This document shows, piece after piece, positions 11,251 through 49,861 of a DNA stretch of 64,000 nucleotides. The notes beneath the pieces were generated by a model. That model was not told the DNA's origin. It saw only the letters and a list, made by a program, of their open reading frames with translations, and ran no database searches. The DNA is from Escherichia coli. GTDB taxonomy: Bacteria > Pseudomonadota > Gammaproteobacteria > Enterobacterales > Enterobacteriaceae. The DNA is taken from assembly GCF_003018255.1 (NCBI RefSeq), contig NZ_CP027440.1; one strand, written 5' to 3'. The position numbers and the translations under genes are program-made. Every line of letters starts with the position of its first letter. Within the stretch, counting starts at the first letter, position 1.

Positions 11251-11337
11251 AAATCCCGACCCTGAGGGGGTCGGGATGAAACTTGCTTAAGCAAGAAGCA
11301 CTTAAAAAATTCGTTACACCAGGAAATCTGATGTGTT
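11251..11337 (-). ncRNA. dsrA: DsrA small regulatory RNA (Hfq-dependent; regulates rpoS and hns)
   Basis: The minus strand reads AACACATCAGATTTCCTGGTGTAACGAATTTTTTAAGTGCTTCTTGCTTAAGCAAGTTTCATCCCGACCCCCTCAGGGTCGGGATTT, ending in a terminator hairpin plus U-tract; matches DsrA as I remember it. Confidence 0.85.
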
Positions 11338-19526: not shown

Positions 19527-19737
19527 GACTCAATCATTTTTTGAACAAATAGATAAATTTTGCGCAACGGCGGTGAATACAGGAAAATTCGATTTGAACG
19601 ATGTTATTTATCTTTGATTTCGGCTTTATTAATTCACTCAATCAATATATTGGCACTGATTACAATTATACCTTTTTATTTTTCTGTGTCATCATGCCTC
19701 CGTTATTAGCCTTTTATCGTCTTGTTTATATTTTTTT

Positions 19738-19762
19738 GGCCGGCATGATGCCGGCTTTTTTT
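19738..19762. terminator. GC hairpin ggccggcat/atgccggcc flanked by A/T runs on both sides (bidirectional intrinsic terminator signature) in the yedR-yedS intergenic region
   Basis: Read directly; no transcribed unit assigned. Confidence 0.4.
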
Positions 19763-27533: not shown

Positions 27534-28106
27534 TCAGGGGGATTCATTGATCTTATTTGCCGGAAATTTTCTATAAATGGTAGAAACGCCTACATCAAAA
27601 ATCAGTGCAATACGCTGTCTTGATTCTCCGGCCTCGAGTAAACGCCCAATCTGTGCCCACTGTTCGGTGGTCAACTTAGGACGGCGTCCACCTACTCTGC
27701 CTTTGGCACGAGCTGCAGCCAGCCCTGCCCTGGTACGTTCAACTATCAGTTCGCGTTCCATTTCAGCCAGGGCACCCATGACATGAAAAAAGAAACGGCC
27801 CATTGGGGTACTGGTATCAATACTGTCAGTCAGGCTTCTGAAATTCACACCACGCTGGCGCAACTCTTCTATCAGCGTAACAAGATGCCGCATACTGCGC
27901 CCCAACCTGTCCAGCTTCCAGACAACCAGCGTGTCTCCTGCCGATAGTGTCCTGAGTAGTTTTTTCAGCCCCGGTCTGTCGGACTTAGTGCCACTGATTT
28001 TGTCCTCAAAAATCCGCTCACATCCCGCGCAGTTCAGTGCATTACGTTGCAAATCGGTGTTCTGGTCATTTGTTGACACGCGTACATAGCCAATAAGCAT
28101 GATCAT
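27534..28106 (-). CDS. Serine-recombinase DNA invertase (Hin/Gin/Pin family)
   Basis: N-terminal GYVRVSTNDQ catalytic-serine motif and C-terminal HTH; abuts the invertible tail-fibre segment. Confidence 0.9.
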   Translation of the reverse strand: MIMLIGYVRVSTNDQNTDLQRNALNCAGCERIFEDKISGTKSDRPGLKKLLRTLSAGDTLVVWKLDRLGRSMRHLVTLIEELRQRGVNFRSLTDSIDTSTPMGRFFFHVMGALAEMERELIVERTRAGLAAARAKGRVGGRRPKLTTEQWAQIGRLLEAGESRQRIALIFDVGVSTIYRKFPANKINESP

Positions 28107-28127
28107 CCCCCTGAATAAAAACCGGAG

Positions 28128-28664
28128 ATGATGCCAGTTAGCTGTTACCTCTGCATTTTCTTAAACGTTGGTTTGGGAGAAGGTTCAGCATTACCTGTTG
28201 GTGCGCCTGTTCCGTGGCCTTCAGAGACACCTCCAACAGGCTGGCTGAAATGCAACGGGGCGGCTTTTTCTGCTGAAGAATACCCGGAACTGGCAAAGGC
28301 TTACCCGACAAATAAATTGCCTGATTTACGAGGTGAATTTATTCGTGGCTGGGATGATGAACGTGGTGTGGATAGTGGGCGAACTCTGCTTTCAGCGCAA
28401 GGAGATGCTATTCGAAACATTACTGGCGGTTTTGGTCAGTTGCGCGTAAACAGCGAAATTAATGCAATTGTCGATGTTCAAAGTGTGAGTGGGGCTTTTT
28501 ACGGAGGTACCTCAGTCCGGAATAACATCAATGTGTCTATGACATACGCTAATGACCGAAAAATCCGACAAGATGTTCACTTCTCGGCGGCAAATGTTGT
28601 TCCAACAGCAAATGAAAATCGTCCACGTAACATCGCCTTTAATTATATTGTGAGGGCCGCATGA
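28128..28664 (+). CDS. Alternative tail-fibre C-terminal module (silent in this orientation; fused to H after inversion)
   Basis: No independent start is needed; its frame passes through the crossover site coding FLNVGLGEGS, matching LTYLGLGEAA in H. Confidence 0.65.
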   Translation: MMPVSCYLCIFLNVGLGEGSALPVGAPVPWPSETPPTGWLKCNGAAFSAEEYPELAKAYPTNKLPDLRGEFIRGWDDERGVDSGRTLLSAQGDAIRNITGGFGQLRVNSEINAIVDVQSVSGAFYGGTSVRNNINVSMTYANDRKIRQDVHFSAANVVPTANENRPRNIAFNYIVRAA

Positions 28665-29265
28665 TGAATAAAGCTGTATTAAATAGCAAACTCATTGCCA
28701 TAAAAGCGGGAGACATTATCATTTATAATTATGATGGTGAAACGCGGGAATATATTTCTACATCAACTGAATATCTCGCTGTCGGCGTCGGTATCCGGCA
28801 TGTTCTTGTTTGGATGCACCAGGTACACATAAAGCTGGTTATGCAATTTGTCGTTCTGTAGATTTAAACTCATGGGAATATGTGCCAGACCATCGCGGTG
28901 AAGTTGTCTATAACACCGAAACGGGAGAATCAAAAGAAATCACAGCTCCGGGTGATTACCCTGAAAATACAACCACTATCGCCCCATTAACGCCATACGA
29001 TAAATGGGATGGCGAGAAATGGGTGACGGATACCGAGGCACAGCATAGCGCCGCAGTAGATGCAGCGGAAGCACAGCGCCAGTCGCTGATTGATACTGCA
29101 ATGGCTTCCATCAGTCTGATTCAACTGAAATTGCATGCCGGACGTAAACTGACGCAGGCAGAAACAACCCGGCTTAACGCTGTGCTGGATTACATTGACA
29201 CGGTGACGGCAACAGATACCAGCACCGCGCCGGATGTCATCTGGCCTGAACTACCGGAGGCGTAG
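28661..29265 (+). pseudogene. Tail-fibre assembly (chaperone) gene paired with the alternative fibre module; split over two frames (28661..28861 and 28810..29265)
   Basis: C-terminal part ends ...VIWPELPEA like the G paralogue ...IEWPTPPVVQAR; the N-terminal 66 aa is in a different frame. Confidence 0.5.
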
Positions 29266-29680
29266 GCCATTCAATATCTGGAGCACTGGAGGTATCAACC
29301 AGTTCCAGTGCGTCCAGATAATCCAGCCATAAATTATATTGTTCCAGTTCGTCACCTTTCAGACGACCAATAGCAGCTTTGCCAGGCCACTGATGGGTGT
29401 TGATGTAGGTATTGGCTTCTGAAACCAAAGATATTTTTTTCATTTCAGCCATCAACACCTCATCCTCTTTTGAAGGCGGTGGGGAATTAATCCATATTGG
29501 CCGTCCTGAACTGTCAGCGCCAATTTCTTTCCCTTCTGGATGCAGCCCAAGAAATTGCTCATATCTTTCTCTGGTAATTTCAATAACATCATCAGGAAGC
29601 GTTCCCGCATCCTCATATTCTGGAAACAATTCTTGCAGATAAAAACTTTTACTTCCGGGTGAAAAGAATACTGAGTTCAT
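29237..29680 (-). CDS. G: Tail-fibre assembly protein (P2 gpG-like) for the currently expressed fibre
   Basis: 147 aa, directly after H. Confidence 0.85.
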   Translation of the reverse strand: MNSVFFSPGSKSFYLQELFPEYEDAGTLPDDVIEITRERYEQFLGLHPEGKEIGADSSGRPIWINSPPPSKEDEVLMAEMKKISLVSEANTYINTHQWPGKAAIGRLKGDELEQYNLWLDYLDALELVDTSSAPDIEWPTPPVVQAR

Positions 29681-29682
29681 TC

Positions 29683-31185
29683 TTACCGTCCAATGATTAA
29701 GGCTGAGACGCTGGTATCTGAAGGAAAGGCTGCATTCAGTGGTTTGTCGACTTTGAATACAATCGTATTATTCCCCCTGACAGCGGCAAAAGAACAAACC
29801 GCAGTCGCGTATGAACCTGTAATATTACTGGATACACCACCATAAGCTGTTGTTGATACCAGAGGGATAACGCCCAGCACCTTATTAGGAAATACAAAGG
29901 GCAATGTGGCTGTGGCAATATAAGACTTATTAGAACCTGTGATGGAATAAGCATTATCAGTCATTCCATTCATCGCCACTGGGCCGCTTATACTTACAGT
30001 AACCATCTGAATGATTAGCCCGTCAGGTTGACGAATCACAAAATTTCCATTGCCACCAGTAACCGTCCAGAAAGACATATCAGGGATTTGGTTTTCCCCG
30101 TTGCCCACATTCCGTTTTGCCGCTTCTCCCAAACCAAGGTATGTGAGAAGACCAGCTACATCCTTTCCACTCAAATTGGTAAGCGTATTGTCCAGCGGTT
30201 GTTTACCTGCCAGCGCATTAAGCATTGTCGTGGCAAAGTTCGGATCATTCCCCAGTGCCGCCGCCAGTTCGTTCAGTGTATCCAGTGCAGCAGGTGCAGA
30301 ACCCACCATTCCTGCAATCGCCGATTTCACAAAAGCCGTAGTGGCAATCTGTGTATTGTTGACCGACTGCGCCGCCGTGGGGGCTGTTGGCGTTCCGGTG
30401 AGTGCCGGACTCGACAACGGTGCTTTTAGTGCCAGCGCATTGTTAATGGTGGTACTGAAATTCGGATCATTGTTAATGGCTGCGGCTATTTCTTTCAGCG
30501 TGTCCAGCGTGGCTGGCGCACCATTAATAAGGGCCGTCAGTGCCGCCTGTACAAACGCAGTGGTCGCAACCTGCGTGGTATTATTCCCCGCCGCTGGCGT
30601 TGGCGCTTTGGGGGTTCCGGTAAATGTCGGGCTGGCTTTTGGCGCGTACTGTGAATGCGGGTCCGGTGCGGCAAGATGTTTTGCCATCTGATCATCCGCG
30701 TACACCTTCAGCTCCAGTGCCTTGTCATCCACATACTTGCGGGTTGCCAGCACTACAGCAGGGTCGATTTTCAGGGTGATATTGTCCGTGCTGCTGGTAA
30801 TCAGCACCATGCGCACGGTCTGAGTGCGCCCGCTACCTTCAGCCAGTTGCGGCTTATAGCTTTCCGGGCAGTTGCCCACGGCAATCAATGCCCCGGACTC
30901 ATCAAACAAGCCCACTTCACGTATCCACCAACCGCCCTCGTTTTCAGGGATCACCTGTTCGGCAATAATCTGGCTGCTGTTCTGCGGGTCGATATAAAGC
31001 ATATTCAGCGCAGCCCGGCGTTTCTCATTTACCAGTGCCGTCTGCTTTGCGTCCGGCGTTGGCAATACTCCACCGCCATCGCCCACCGCCATATGGGTAA
31101 TTTTTAGCGGCACACCGAGCGCGGCGGCGCTGGCAAGTTTCGCCGCGCCAATATCCGTCAGCAGGGTATAAAATTTTGTGCTCAT
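29683..31185 (-). CDS. H: Tail fibre protein (P2 gpH-like, 500 aa); N-terminal ~349 aa constant, C-terminal part inside the invertible segment
   Basis: Conserved N-terminus MSTKFYTLLTDIGAAKLA...; internal ~73-aa tandem repeat; crossover site within the ORF. Confidence 0.9.
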   Translation of the reverse strand: MSTKFYTLLTDIGAAKLASAAALGVPLKITHMAVGDGGGVLPTPDAKQTALVNEKRRAALNMLYIDPQNSSQIIAEQVIPENEGGWWIREVGLFDESGALIAVGNCPESYKPQLAEGSGRTQTVRMVLITSSTDNITLKIDPAVVLATRKYVDDKALELKVYADDQMAKHLAAPDPHSQYAPKASPTFTGTPKAPTPAAGNNTTQVATTAFVQAALTALINGAPATLDTLKEIAAAINNDPNFSTTINNALALKAPLSSPALTGTPTAPTAAQSVNNTQIATTAFVKSAIAGMVGSAPAALDTLNELAAALGNDPNFATTMLNALAGKQPLDNTLTNLSGKDVAGLLTYLGLGEAAKRNVGNGENQIPDMSFWTVTGGNGNFVIRQPDGLIIQMVTVSISGPVAMNGMTDNAYSITGSNKSYIATATLPFVFPNKVLGVIPLVSTTAYGGVSSNITGSYATAVCSFAAVRGNNTIVFKVDKPLNAAFPSDTSVSALIIGR

Positions 31186-42460: not shown

Positions 42461-44428
<1,968 letters not shown>

Positions 44429-45268: not shown

Positions 45269-47710
45269 TTAATACAGGTTCCGCCACTGATCATCTTCCT
45301 GCAAACGCTGGTTCCGATAGAAGATACGCAGGCCTGCTCCTGACGGAATACTGCCTCCGCGAAGGAGTAAATCGACCTCTTTCTCGCTGCCATCAAATCC
45401 TCTGGACTTCAGCTCATACACGAGCTGCAGTCGCTGATGGTCTGTAATTCGCTGTTTGTAGTCTTTACGCCGTTTCGGTTTCACCAGGCGTAACCTTGCA
45501 GCCAGTTCCCGGCGCTCTTTTTTGCTCATACTGTGCAGGTAATCGTGCAACTCCTTGTCATCCATGCGGGTAATGTCCGTTCTGGTATCCCCATCAGCTG
45601 ATTTGTCTTTCCCTTGTTGGTTCAAATTTTCAGCAAGGGGACAGTTATTGCCACGAGTCCAAGGGGCGCAAGCGCCCTGGTCGGCTGCCGCCTCCTGAAC
45701 GTCAACGGCCTTACGAACCATTTTCCACTTCACTGCATGAGTGCAGATCTTGCCCTCTGCAATGGGTGACCAGATGCCATAAATACGAATACCGTGATCA
45801 CCATAGGCGGTCGGCTCTTCGTTGATTTCATAAGCGGTTCTGATCAAGTGATATTTGCGGGGAACCAGTACGCCGCCCTGCTTCATAATGTAGGTGGCAA
45901 AACAGCCAGCATCAGCAGCAGCCAGAATGGCATCAAGGCGCGGGTTATCCAGTACCGACGCACCTGCTTTTTTGTCACCCTGTTGCCTTGCCGCCTGACC
46001 AGCCAGCAATCGCAGTTCACGGTAAGCCTGACGCCCCGGAATGCCAAAGAAGCGGAATTGCTGAACACGATGCAGAGACGCCCAGGCATTAACGTATTCA
46101 GCATTATCACGCAGGGATTTACCCGTTTCCTTGCTGATCTCGCCAGCCAGACCACGCCCGTCAATGTTCTTACTGATGTATTTCGCGATGTAGCTTGTTG
46201 GCGTACCTTTGCGCGGGTTTATCAGCTCAGACTTAAAGCGTGGCCCCGTGTTATTACCCAGCTCCTCGCGGTCTTCACGAATGGCAAACTTACGCAGCAA
46301 AGCAGTAATGGCGCGGCGATCTTTTTTGCGCATGAAACACAACAGGTGCCAGTGAACTGTGCCGTCATGATGCGGCTCAGCCACCCGCACGCCATACCAG
46401 CGCAACCCGGTTTTGTGCATAGCCTTACGAAATGCAGCAAACATGCCGACCAGATAATCGCTGCTTTGTCTTACCGTCGCGTTTGTCCAGGTCGGGTTTG
46501 GTCTGCCGTTATTGAGCGTGGAATGGAAACGCGACGGACAGGTGATGGTGTAGAAAACGGCACAGTCACTGCGCATTTCCGCGATAAGCTCCAGACCTTT
46601 AACACAGGCCATCATCTCATTGCGGCGATGCGCCGGGTTGCTGCTGCTGGCCTTTACCACATCTTCCATATCCAGCGTGTCGCCGTTTTCGTTCACCAGT
46701 TCATGAGAACGGAAAAACTCCAGCGACTTACGGCGCTGCTCACGTTTATGCATCACGGCTTCATAGCTGACATAGGGAGATGCTTTTTTGCTGACCAGGC
46801 AGACAGCACGCAACTGCTCTTCCCGCCATTCGCAGCGCATCTTCCATAATTTCCGATACCACCAGTCGGCACACAACATACGCGCCAGCGAACCCGGAAT
46901 GAGTTCATAGGGCACGGGTTTGCGACGCTTTCTTTTCCGACGAAGTTGCTCAAACGCAGGCGGGATAACATCCAGTCGCAGGGTTTCCGCTGCCACCTTT
47001 TCCCATGTCTTGCGGATTTCTTCTGGCTTAACATCATCGGTGGCGTACAAATCACCACAAGCGGCATCAAGGCACATGCTCATATGCGCAGCTACCAGGG
47101 TGGACAGGCGTTTCACCTGATCCTGACTCATTTCAGGCAGGATCAGCAGGCCGTCCAGCCCTTCATGGCTCGCCATAAAGCGAAAAGAAGTGGATAGCTG
47201 ACTGTCGCGTACATGCTCCAGCCGTTCCAGACATGGCTTAATCGTCTCACGCAAATAGCGAGAATAAGCCTTTGGCCTGCCCAGGCTGCTGAAGTATTCA
47301 ATACGTTGCATCAGCGGCTTGCTGATATGGGAAGGCTGGGCGTTAACGTCCGCCAGAATGACCATGTCCGGATTAAAACGCTGCTGCTCATGCGCCAGCT
47401 TTGCCCGGCTAATGAGCTTATCCTGCTCCATTTCGCGTTGGACAGGATCACGGGATTCATTAAAGAAATAACGCTCCCAGACCTGATCACTCAGTGCCTC
47501 GCGGCGCAGTTGTTCCTGCTCGTTATCGGCAGCGTACAGAGTGATCAGGTTTGAAAGCGCAGAAACCGGCGCAACTTCCGCCGGGTCCAGATAAGGGTTA
47601 ATGGCTTTCTTAGGTAAATTCCACGAATAACCCCCGGCAGAATTCTCAATGCTACCGGAAGTTACACTGACAAATGGATCGGCAAGACGGCCTGTGCTGA
47701 TCTCTGTCAC
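45269..47710 (-). CDS. A: Replication initiation protein (P2 gpA / 186 RepA family rolling-circle initiator, 813 aa)
   Basis: Size, position and paired catalytic tyrosines (...YIAKYISKN...). Confidence 0.88.
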
Positions 47711-48717
47711 TCACAGACTCCTGCATATACACTGCTGCACACCGCTTTATCATTCATGCCTGCCAGCAGGTCAAACTGCATACCGCCCCGAGTTGTTAAG
47801 GCCCAGTCCCGATAAGTTTCAATGCCATAAGCATCAACAGTTATGACTTCGATCCGTTTTTCATCACGGCGCGGATCATGCGTGGATGGAAAGAACGTTG
47901 AATTGCCACGTCTTGAACATTCCGCAACCAGTCTTTCCCACTCAGCCACTCGGCGGATTTCTTCTGGCCAGCGTTGGAAAATCTCAGCAAGTTCTGACTT
48001 GCGAGCATGAATACATGGCATACAACCGACACGACTGCATCCCTGCATATAAAGGGGGTTAGGCTTAATGCCATGACGTTTGGCAATAGCAAACACATCC
48101 TCATGCAGCCAATTAAGGATCGGACGATAAACATGCAGGCCCAGAGTATTGTCTGCATCGTCCTCCCACTCAGGCAACAATGCACGTTCCGGTGATTCCT
48201 GCCCCCGGACTCCTTGCCAGCTGATTACCTCATCGTATTCATCCAGAGCCGGATCGATTACCTGTGTACGTATTGGTTCATGTTTTAGTTCAAAAGTGCA
48301 GAAACGAGCTTTTGTTGAAGGGAAGCGACCTTTCCACATGCACAAATCAAGAAACGGAACGCCGGTTGGTTTAAGGATTTCCAGTGCCCGGTAAATACGT
48401 TCCTCAGCCTCATCTGTCGACATACCACATTCCTCAACGAGAGAAATGGGCCACTTTTCCGCAATGAATTTACGTTTCCCTTCTATCTGGCGTGTGAAAT
48501 CCGCTTTGACGCGAATAATCTTGCCCAGCTTTGATTCCAGATAATCCAGATATTCTATTGTCTGTGGATGTTCATGACCCGTATCGGCAAATACAGAAAT
48601 ATGCGGAACATCGTTTTCAATGGCTCTTAACCATTGAGCGAGACTATCTTTGCCACCAGAAGTAGTGATGATGTTAATGGTGCTTGAAGCAAAGCAACGC
48701 GGATCGATAGCATTCAT
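47707..48717 (-). CDS. PP-loop ATP pyrophosphatase, PAPS-reductase-like (336 aa)
   Basis: PP-loop motif TTSGGKDS near the N-terminus; Cys-rich C-terminal part; translationally coupled to dam upstream and A downstream. Confidence 0.75.
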
Positions 48718-49562
48718 GCGCGTACCTCAACGGTACGGTCAGAGCCGCTGGCAAAATCGACACCAAACCACCCAGCTGATTTGGTGGCAATGATTTCTGT
48801 TGCAGATTTACTCTCGCCAGCTGACACGCCAATGCTGCGTTTTGACTTGATGTAGTGGTGAGTGAAATTGCGATACAGCGAACGGATCAGGGATGTGTCA
48901 CTGTTAGAAACAATGACCGGATGACCTTCAGATGATCGATGTTCAAGAACGGATGCCAGGTGATACTGGTCATCTTCAGTGAAGCCATCAGTGTGATAGC
49001 CGGAAAACGTACCGTCATAAGGCGGATCGCAATATACCACATCCCCCACCTTCAACATCGCCAGCGTTTCATCAAAGCTGGCGCAGATAAACGTTGCCCG
49101 CTGGGCTTTCTCTGCAAATGCGCGAATTTCTTTTTCAGGGAAATACGGATTTTTATAATTACCGTAGGGAATGTTGAAATACCCGCTCTTGTTATAGCGA
49201 CATAGCCCACGGTAACCATGACGATTGAGATACAGAAAATATACCGCTTTCATGAAATCAGTAATTTCAGTGGAGTAATTAAACTCCTGCCTTATGTTGT
49301 AATAAGCCACCTCTCTGTTTGCTTCCTCAAATAAAGCTCTGGCACGAGATATAAACGCCTCACAATCAGCAGCAACCTTTTTATAGAGGTTGATTAAATC
49401 AGGATTAATATCCGCAACCAGATAGCTGGGGTAATCCGTCTCCATCATCACAGCACAAGAACCCGCGAAAGGTTCAACCAGTCGCGGGCCAGCAGGAAGG
49501 TATTTTTTCAGTTCGGACATAATGGCGGTTTTATTACCCGCCCATTTCAGGATGGTGCTCAT
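48714..49562 (-). CDS. dam: DNA adenine methyltransferase (Dam-type, D12 class)
   Basis: [11 protein letters not shown]-binding start and DPPY catalytic motif; start set to [11 protein letters not shown]. Confidence 0.9.
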
Positions 49563-49861
49563 ACAGCACCTCCTGCAATAACATATCCTAAAGCTTCTAA
49601 TGGGGTTAATGAGCGAATTGATAGCATCACCCATTGTTCTGAAACTGCCATGACGTCATTAACCGGAAGCACATGAGAGATAACCGCGGCCCATTCCCTA
49701 CCCGTAAATACGCCATGCTTCCATTCGCAAAGAGAAAGAACATCACCAACTTTATAGCCACGATCGTCTTTACGAAGTTCAGCCGTCTTTTGACCTGCAA
49801 CCACAGCGTTGAAATACTTAGGTGCAATTTTTAATTGATGGATACGCACAGCCCCTGTCAT
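49559..49861 (-). CDS. ASCH-like small protein (~100 aa)
   Basis: ORF 49559..49921 with start set to [11 protein letters not shown]...; fold assignment is from memory of similar phage proteins only. Confidence 0.5.

Follow-up and report, generated by a model that had tools for sequence, protein, structure and literature searches.

The window is a 64-kb stretch of DNA, and its central part carries late genes in the order W-J-I-H-tfa, then a switch region, then FI-FII-E-T-U-D, followed by capsid and terminase genes. The late gene set is complete, and over more than 80% of 24.9 kb the region is collinear with Peduoviridae phages at 96-97% identity. Judged by these sequence matches, the host element is a P2-like (Peduoviridae) prophage in an E. 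coli-type chromosome. The earlier note on this DNA had placed an inversion switch within a P2-type tail gene cluster, which is borne out by the gene order and by the presence of a recombination site in the fiber gene. The features of the locus are as follows.

27534..28100, minus strand: invertase gene of the Pin/Cin/Gin family, 188 aa (Pfam, PHROG and structure matches)
28011..28082, minus strand: candidate recombinational enhancer (Fis sites), placed solely by positional homology at nt 19-90 of the invertase gene
28156..28181: left 26-bp site, TTTTCTTAAACG-TT-GGTTTGGGAGAA, crossover dinucleotide 28168-28169
28168..30137: invertible segment, 1,969 bp between the central dinucleotides
28170..28664, plus strand: silent alternative fiber C-terminus H'v, collar type, 164 aa; open from 28128
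28661..29265, plus strand: silent alternative assembly gene tfa', TfaE type, frameshifted; the intact form matches PHROG 105 (E 4e-97)
29237..29680, minus strand: expressed tail-fiber assembly gene tfa, 147 aa; PHROG 188 (E 1.5e-54)
29683..30135, minus strand: expressed variable C-terminus of H, residues 351-500; PHROG 12714 over residues 356-500
30124..30149: right 26-bp site, TTCTCCCAAACC-AA-GGTATGTGAGAA, crossover dinucleotide 30136-30137, in the Leu350 codon of H
30136..31185, minus strand: constant N-terminal part of fiber gene H, residues 1-350; Pfam Phage_tail_fib PF12571 (E 1.5e-64)

Recombination sites and the point of strand exchange

A repeat search of the window gives the inverted pair 28156-28182 and 30123-30149, and the 13-mer GGTTTGGGAGAAG is present in exactly two copies in the 64 kb, inverted relative to each other. 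Both sites have a 12+2+12 architecture, which for the left site is the same as that of the cix and gix sites, and their cores (TT and AA) match. When a 26-bp palindromic consensus was searched with at most 3 mismatches in 100 shuffles, no match was found, such that the chance expectation is zero. A third recombination site, as in a shufflon-like system, was not found in the 64-kb window by the 13-mer and consensus scans. The left site is identical to the site of the Escherichia phage 500465-1, as is the right site to its counterpart in that phage. The ~1.97-kb segment beside a serine invertase gene, reported previously, is therefore confirmed by the 26-bp inverted sites found at both of its ends.

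The half-site common to the two sites codes for G-L-G-E in both H (LLTYL/GLGEAAK, with G351 after the slash) and the silent ORF (FLNV/GLGEGS), as described in the earlier note. The AA core is also that of cix, and the site occupies the homologous (Y/N)LGLxE codons of the fiber genes of Mu, P1 and P2. The exchange point in this invertase family is the central 2 bp. Strand exchange maps here to the central TT/AA at 28168-9 and 30136-7, being the second and third bases of the Leu350 codon in H. The crossover had previously been drawn at the edge of the 13-mer (28170..30134), which at each end lies 2-3 bp inside the exchange point proper, the central dinucleotide.

The repeat encodes the conserved LGLGE peptide, which is possibly kept for protein reasons, and the inverted repeats might then be a chance or structural likeness of paralogous fiber modules, to which the recombinase is unrelated. 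This is exceedingly improbable: the full 12+2+12 architecture includes the outer half-site beside the invertase gene, which is non-coding, and the zero matches in the shuffles, together with relatives that are inverted exactly at the sites (see below), effectively refute it.

The invertase and its upstream region

The maximal ORF of the invertase gene in the ORF list of the window is 27534..28106 on the minus strand. The likely start is the ATG at 28100, giving a protein of 188 aa that begins with MLIGYVRVS; the same start is annotated in relatives. Pfam detects the Resolvase (E 4e-53) and HTH_7 (E 3e-15) domains, PHROG 125 'DNA invertase' matches with E 7e-101, and the Mu Gin structures 3UJ3 and 4M6F align full-length (E 1e-92; for 4M6F, E 3e-91). 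Ser9, in the VRVSTNDQ motif, is intact, and residue 114 is the wild-type Met, whereas crystallized Gin is the M114V variant. An inactivating mutation of the invertase, which the earlier note had named as a refuting observation, is absent, since the protein is full length and Ser9 and Met114 are both wild type. The invertase differs by one amino acid from those of OU342919 and phage 500465-1. Its identity is 85% with PinE of e14 (over 184 aa), 78% with P1 Cin and 75.5% with Mu Gin; by this measure, the nearest classical invertase is e14 PinE, rather than Hin or Gin. The earlier description as a Hin/Gin-type serine invertase is thus correct for the family, as seen from the Pfam and Gin structure matches, but not for the nearest relation.

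The invertase is predicted to depend on Fis. The P1 record places the annotated Cin enhancer at cin nt 19-90, and the same nucleotides of the invertase gene align gap-free with cin (78% identity) and gin (72%). As in gin, 15-mers of the form G-N13-C occupy nt 22-36 and 71-85, and the distance from the center of the candidate enhancer to the left site is 122 bp. When identical codons at identical residues are compared inside versus outside nt 19-90, the fractions are 0.36 versus 0.38 for gin and 0.53 versus 0.37 for cin, such that this synonymous-site comparison gives no excess conservation with respect to gin and a modest excess with respect to cin. A simple scan with the Fis motif, which is highly degenerate, gives many weak matches alike in cin, gin and the invertase gene. 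On the minus strand, the sigma-70 scan identified no promoter-like site from the left site to the invertase start, the match count in this region being equal to the shuffle expectation.

Fiber gene H and its two tips

Residues 1-354 of H are 50% identical to P2 H. The tip that is currently joined to this constant part has a weak Pfam match to Gp53-like_C (E 0.0017), and no close relative of it was found among 50,697 phage records, in which the best match has 38% identity. The silent module H'v matches Pfam Collar PF07484 (E 1e-15) and PHROG 523 'tail collar fiber protein' (E 7e-74), and its region matches the stf/tfa cassettes of e14 and HK97 at 83-91% nucleotide identity. The silent module is preceded by an ATG of its own at 28128, and for this ORF the sigma-70 scan gave no promoter. 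No similarity of either tip to the variable parts of Mu S or S' was detected, and the NCBIfam search gave no family for the fiber or Tfa proteins.

On in-silico inversion, H of 500 aa becomes H' of 514 aa, which is open and in frame, in agreement with the in-frame swap of the last ~150 fiber residues that had been proposed. The two tips belong to different families (Gp53-like and Collar), and therefore they likely recognize different receptors.

The assembly genes and the tfa' frameshift

The genes tfa and tfa' overlap tail to tail by 29 bp, and the C-terminal 80 residues of Tfa are 35% identical to Tfa'. In the window, tfa' is split into two ORFs, 28661..28861 (66 aa) and 28810..29265 (151 aa), by the loss of one base, CCC having become CC at 28795-28796. 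The alignment with the intact 603-bp tfa' of OU342919 shows that a single C is missing. The two tips, therefore, do not each have an intact chaperone gene of their own: the current cassette is intact and tfa' is broken. The earlier note had proposed that the chaperone is swapped together with the tip; the second tfa gene is present as proposed, but it is not intact, as the 1-bp deletion had been missed.

Among the 134 E. coli genomes that have this stretch, tfa' is intact in ~133, and the deleted form is found in one. A programmed frameshift was considered and is rejected in view of the gene being intact in nearly all of these genomes. The sole genome sharing the deletion also has several frameshifted neighboring genes, which points to an assembly error in that genome. 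For the window, a 6-kb chromosomal flank aligns to E. coli over 5,999 of its 6,001 bases, in one piece and with no net length change, because of which the deletion is mildly more likely to be a real mutation than a sequencing error. As read from this sequence, the flipped state would probably give poorly assembled fibers, unless the deletion is a sequencing error. A change of host range on flipping is doubtful here because tfa' is frameshifted, and flipping may give defective fibers instead of a new host range.

Both orientations occur among relatives

The orientation was counted in complete E. coli genomes holding at least 80% of the query, which was used as it is and after in-silico flipping. 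The orientation of the window is found in 25 of these genomes and the flipped orientation in 44; some part of the query is matched in 2,959 of the 5,426 complete E. coli genomes. The near-isogenic strains 1604D011 and 1504D004 have equal genome length and coordinates and identical flanks, and between them a 1,905-bp middle part is reverse-complemented. In the OU342919 assembly, one locus is present twice, in an untrimmed 19-kb end overlap, and the segment in one copy is a perfect inversion of that in the other (0 mismatches over 1,941 bp). The difference between relatives is an exact reverse-complementation of the interval 28168..30137.

The spacer between the invertase gene and the site is nearly identical to that of the flipping relatives, the sites match exactly those of 500465-1, a phage that has been isolated, and the full-length invertase is one residue away from its counterparts in strains recorded in both orientations. 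The remaining prophage is collinear with isolated Peduoviridae phages at the 96-97% identity given above. These properties argue against the switch being a frozen relic in this strain, in which inversion has stopped or no longer matters, possibly due to a defective enhancer or promoter, or to prophage decay with the tfa' frameshift as its first sign. The rarity of the tfa' deletion among relatives, the result of the sigma-70 scan upstream of the invertase gene and an enhancer that is not demonstrable from sequence are in favor of such a relic, which nevertheless we regard as unlikely. The preferred reading is that the switch would be active in this strain as well.

Comparison with known inversion systems

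Invertase-driven switching of tail fibers is textbook knowledge since Mu, P1 and e14. The classical system with the nearest invertase is the P segment of e14, a cryptic prophage of E. coli K-12, with stfP-tfaP / tfaE-stfE and pinE. The layout is the same as here (a fiber gene, two convergent tfa genes, a silent tip and the invertase gene), the inner half-site GGTTTGGGAGAA is shared, and the stfE/tfaE cassette has 83-88% nucleotide identity to the silent collar cassette. The P segment also adjoins P2-type baseplate genes (jayE and ymfQ). The differences are that e14 is defective, with stfE being a pseudogene, whereas the prophage described here has a full late gene set, and that the second cassette of the window (the Gp53-like tip and the 147-aa Tfa) has no match in K-12 e14. 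Inversion in e14 has been demonstrated experimentally (PMC4272514, PMC12529663).

PinQ reportedly acts on the P segment of e14, and the StfE2 product blocks adsorption of other phages (PMC12529663). The main role of the present switch might likewise be in the lysogen, with inversion toggling fiber-derived adsorption blockers, or with the invertase acting in trans on other prophages. What the locus shares with the P segment (inner half-site and silent collar cassette), the 85% identity of the invertase to PinE and the upstream ATG of the silent module agree with such a role. We consider it very unlikely when compared with use in the virion, which is the simplest reading, as the late gene set is complete, unlike in e14, and no promoter was found for the silent ORF.

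Mu and P1 are less close. In the C segment of P1, cixR GGTATTGGATAA resembles the outer half-site GGTATGTGAGAA of the window, the AA core is shared, the site lies in homologous YLGLxE fiber codons and Cin is 78% identical. However, cin has its 3' end toward the segment, whereas the invertase gene described here has its 5' end toward it, as in Mu; the C segment measures 4.2 kb, its variable parts are far longer and its fiber tips are unrelated. In the G segment of Mu, the invertase gene has the same orientation relative to the segment as here, Gin aligns full-length at 75.5% identity, and the site lies in the NLGLQE codons of S. The core dinucleotide is GA/TC in Mu and AA/TT here, the Mu segment is 3 kb, and the tail gene order is of the Mu type, not of the P2 type.

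The tail gene order of P2 itself is the same as here, and at the equivalent IEYLGLQET codons P2 H has a relic half-site, TTATCGAATATC-TC-GGTTTACAGGAA, the right half of which is that of Mu gixL. P2 has no invertase, partner site or second cassette, and the previous statement that P2 is without the switch is correct, fun(Z) being located between G and FI in P2. Fels-2, a P2-like Salmonella prophage, reportedly (Kutsukake et al., in 2006) has an invertase, Fin, and inverted repeats, by which alternative fiber C-termini are produced.

A DNA invertase is annotated in several Peduoviridae, namely Escherichia phage 500465-1, pro483, Cartapus and Klebsiella phage KP12, in the same slot (between tfa and the sheath gene FI) and with the same layout. 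These relatives differ in cassette content. Phage 500465-1 (Peduoviridae, Wadgaonvirus) has an invertase gene with a 1-nt difference from that of the window, identical sites, and flanks of 99.9-100% identity; its segment is in the flipped state, with a collar cassette of no more than 85-89% identity and another cassette that bears no relation to the one found here. The P2-like prophages of EPEC E2348/69 can be likened by layout, having an invertase and inverted repeats that give alternative fiber C-termini, and their fiber variants coexist, as found by whole-genome sequencing and PCR (Goldberg et al. 2014, PMC4272514). One EPEC E2348/69 locus has three repeats and four variants (PMC4272514), as compared with only two sites in this window.

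Proposed mechanism and implications

It is highly probable that the locus is a two-state inversion switch of the Fis/enhancer type, of the Pin/Cin/Gin family, in the tail-fiber operon of a P2-like prophage. The invertase would be made at a low level in the lysogen, and its dimers would bind the two inverted 26-bp sites. These would synapse, presumably at an enhancer that lies toward the 5' end of the invertase gene and is bound by Fis, after which the invertase would cut the central TT/AA with a 2-bp stagger and the strands would rotate by 180 degrees. As the exchange falls in the codon for Leu350 of H, the first 350 residues stay constant and would be joined to one of two tips: in the present state, the 150-residue Gp53-like tip, followed by the 147-aa Tfa chaperone, and in the flipped state, the 164-residue collar-type tip, followed by the TfaE-type chaperone. 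An induced lysogen population would then release virions with two receptor specificities.

Because tfa' is frameshifted, the fiber of flipped virions would be without its chaperone, and inversion in this strain might instead be a stochastic on/off switch of infectivity. Another possibility is an anti-phage adsorption block in the lysogen like that of PinQ/StfE2; neither seems probable. If an adsorption block were the true function, it could be exerted via the flipped product, the silent ORF, or the action of the invertase in trans on e14, Rac or Qin sites. For the preferred two-state switch, one defective state is to be expected if the tfa' frameshift is real.

The switch is already known and very common; many P2-like phages and thousands of E. 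coli genomes have the same cassette in their annotation, and inversion has been shown in e14 and, by sequencing and PCR, in P2-like prophages (PMC4272514). The unusualness implied in the earlier note finds no support in view of these annotations in Peduoviridae phages and of the partial matches in more than half of the complete E. coli genomes. The locus has little weight as a discovery, and its practical value is in annotation and interpretation, as the predicted fiber tip of the prophage depends on which orientation has been captured by the assembly. Mixed orientations in a culture can also leave assembly artifacts, such as in OU342919. The silent fiber module is usually annotated as 'hypothetical protein' or 'phage tail protein'.

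Gene layout of the invertible tail-fibre switch

The tail-fibre switch is located in the P2-type tail cluster of the prophage, on the minus strand, with the baseplate genes on one side and the sheath gene on the other, and the gene order around it is W, J, I, H, tfa, followed by FI, FII, E, T, U and D. The switch comprises an invertase gene and a 1,969-bp segment between two inverted 26-bp sites, with the features listed here.

Features of the switch (window coordinates)
27534..28100, minus strand, serine recombinase gene
28170..28664, strand opposite to H, collar-type fibre C-terminus, promoterless
28661..29265, strand opposite to H, TfaE-type assembly gene (tfa'), frameshifted
29237..29680, minus strand, tail-fibre assembly gene (tfa), 147 aa
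29683..31185, minus strand, fibre gene H, 500 aa

The assembly genes tfa and tfa' are convergent and overlap tail-to-tail by 29 bp (29237-29265), the final nine codons of each being read from opposite strands of one DNA stretch, just downstream of a conserved APD(I/V)xWP motif; this overlap is likewise annotated in relatives. The prophage extends over about 19.8-54 kb of the window and is bordered by rseX on one side and by the hchA/hprRS/msrPQ region on the other side, in a chromosome of the E. coli type. At the Rfam gathering threshold, the sRNA genes DsrA (11251-11337, minus strand) and rseX (19673-19762, plus strand) are found, and since rseX adjoins the ogr/D end, the prophage is inserted near rseX.

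Recombination sites and the crossover point

A repeat search of the window identifies an inverted repeat pair at 28156-28182 and 30123-30149. The 64 kb contain two copies of the 13-mer GGTTTGGGAGAAG and no more, in inverted orientation, and the consensus of the 26-bp site has no match in 100 shuffles. When written as 12 + 2 + 12 nucleotides, the left site (28156-28181) is TTTTCTTAAACG-TT-GGTTTGGGAGAA and the right site (30124-30149) is TTCTCCCAAACC-AA-GGTATGTGAGAA, which is the same architecture as that of the gix sites of Mu and the cix sites of P1, taken from the Mu and P1 records. No third recombination site is present within the 64-kb window, and therefore this is a simple two-state element.

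Invertases of the Hin/Gin/Cin family make a 2-bp staggered cut at the central dinucleotide (here TT/AA), and the P1 record also places the cix crossover at this position. In the switch the central TT/AA (28168-9 and 30136-7) supplies bases 2 and 3 of the H codon Leu350. The earlier note had rightly placed the crossover inside the fibre gene, but its boundaries (28170..30134) have to be moved outward by 2-3 bp on both sides. Taking the reverse complement of 28168..30137 in silico fuses H residues 1-350 to GLGEGSALPVG...RAA, and the flipped fibre H' is an open reading frame of 514 aa, such that inversion trades 150 residues for 164. The proposed tail-fibre switch is confirmed, and its interpretation as an in-frame exchange of the fibre tip is essentially right; the accompanying exchange of the chaperone, as also proposed, may be compromised by the frameshift in tfa' (28795-6). 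The junction has the motif (Y/N)LGLxE, which is also seen in Mu S (NLGLQE), P1 S (YLGLRE) and P2 H (YLGLQE).

The invertase and its candidate enhancer

The invertase has 188 residues, with the Pfam Resolvase and HTH_7 domains, and it matches the PHROG 'DNA invertase' family (E 7e-101). Its alignment with the Mu Gin crystal sequences covers the full length (E about 1e-92), and in this alignment Ser9 is present and Met114 is wild type. The possibility of an inactivated invertase had been raised previously; the gene has no truncation or obvious inactivating change. Sequence identity is 85% with e14 PinE, 78% with P1 Cin and 75.5% with Mu Gin. The earlier description was Hin/Gin-type; among the classical invertases the closest relative is Pin, not Hin or Gin. 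A single residue distinguishes this invertase from that of E. coli OU342919 (NZ_OU342919.1), and likewise from that of the isolated Peduoviridae phage 500465-1, whose recombination sites are identical to those described here.

In the P1 record, the annotated Cin enhancer covers nucleotides 19-90 of cin. The equivalent region of the window, 28011-28082, is 78% identical to cin and is located 122 bp from the left site. As in gin, G-N13-C 15-mers occur at nucleotides 22-36 and 71-85 of the invertase gene; the Fis motif is degenerate. Because of this degeneracy, and because the synonymous-site comparison is not decisive, this region is treated as a putative recombinational enhancer. The promoter scan finds no sigma-70-like promoter upstream of the invertase gene; from the precedent of gin and cin, a weak invertase promoter would be expected.

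Both orientations occur among relatives

The 3-kb region as it stands and its in-silico flipped version were searched against complete E. coli genomes, counting a genome if at least 80% of the query was present in one collinear piece. This coverage demands matching orientation, since 65% of the query is the segment itself. The window orientation is found in 25 complete genomes and the flipped orientation in 44. The strains 1604D011 and 1504D004 have equal genome length and the same locus coordinates, with identical flanks of 2,283 and 1,778 bp, and the intervening 1,905 bp, between shared half-sites, are reverse-complemented.

In the OU342919 record, the final ~19 kb (4883.8-4902.8 kb) duplicate the first ~19 kb (1-19 kb); the repeat begins at record position 1 and breaks off mid-gene at the record end. 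It is most simply explained as the untrimmed overlap of a circularised long-read contig, an assembly artefact. The switch of this strain is 98.4% identical to that of the window, and in its two copies the segment is exactly inverted, with no mismatches in 1,941 bp. This exact inversion implies that both orientations coexisted in one culture of the OU342919 strain. The evidence that such switches flip comes from the assembled genomes of relatives, not from the present strain. The OU342919 record is a RefSeq 'complete' chromosome, with extra frameshifts in the second copy. Once inversion is allowed for, the otherwise identical loci of NZ_CP149553.1 and NZ_CP149565.1 (2005-2008 kb) differ at 16 positions, every one of which falls in the invertible segment, in its second half; polishing noise caused by reads of mixed orientation, or recombination between the tfa genes, may account for them.

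Fibre tips and their assembly proteins

The expressed tip (29683-30135, minus strand; 150 aa) has a weak Gp53-like_C Pfam match. In a collection of 50,697 phage records it has no close relative (best tblastn match 38% identity over 69% of its length), and it is found repeatedly in E. coli prophages. The silent tip has a Collar domain, and the silent cassette (tip and tfa') shares 83-91% nucleotide identity with its stf/tfa homologues in e14 and HK97. The two Tfa proteins belong to PHROGs 188 and 105 and have only their C-terminal region in common (35% identity over 81 residues).

Compared with OU342919, tfa' has a 1-bp deletion (CCC to CC at 28795-28796). Among 134 E. coli genomes holding the same 61-nt stretch, the deletion is seen in one, and the stretch is intact in about 133. 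In that single genome several neighbouring genes are also annotated as frameshifted, which suggests an assembly error there. In the window the deletion is either a real mutation or a sequencing error; unless it is the latter, the flipped state would, because of the missing C, produce H' without an intact cognate chaperone.

Relation to known systems

Isolated Peduoviridae phages, among them Klebsiella phage KP12, align collinearly with the prophage at 96-97% identity, as does the phage-collection record CP019275. The same switch is present in phage 500465-1 (Wadgaonvirus), there in the flipped orientation; the record of this phage has a 'DNA invertase' annotation, its flanks are 99.9-100% identical to the window, and its cassettes are partly different. 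As had been noted, plain P2 lacks the switch: fun(Z) occupies its slot and there is no invertase. Codons 376-384 of P2 H (NC_001895; IEYLGLQET) nevertheless contain a relic recombination site, TTATCGAATATC-TC-GGTTTACAGGAA, whose right half-site is that of Mu gixL, at the module boundary that the active site marks in the window.

The nearest classical system is e14 of K-12, with pinE, the same half-site and an stfE/tfaE cassette, adjoining P2-type baseplate remnants. Sequencing and PCR have demonstrated inversion in P2-like prophages of EPEC E2348/69, and the same holds for e14 of K-12 (PMC4272514). P2-like prophages with such switches are common, and this switch belongs to a known and ordinary class of elements. 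The e14 P segment has been reported to block T2 adsorption (PMC12529663); a corresponding role of the present switch in blocking phage adsorption, for which this report speaks, is improbable.

Other cargo of the prophage

A retron (42461-44401, minus strand) occupies the P2 old/tin cargo slot, adjoining the portal gene Q. Its ORF of 646 aa matches the NCBIfam 'retron Ec67 family RNA-directed DNA polymerase/endonuclease' (704 bits versus a curated cut-off of 450) and PADLOC RT-Toprim type I-C (E 9e-217). Immediately upstream of what is probably the true start of this ORF lies a pair of 13-nt inverted repeats (44259-44271 and 44377-44389), which are candidates for the a1/a2 repeats on either side of msr-msd; Rfam gives no match at this place. 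The retron-Ec67 prophage, described about 1990, is similar. The region 47707-49634 (minus strand), which lies upstream of the gpA-type replication nickase (45269-47710), encodes a Dam-family adenine methyltransferase (TIGR00571, 319 bits) together with a PAPS-reductase/SspD/DndC-like protein, and the two may serve the prophage in anti-restriction or DNA modification.
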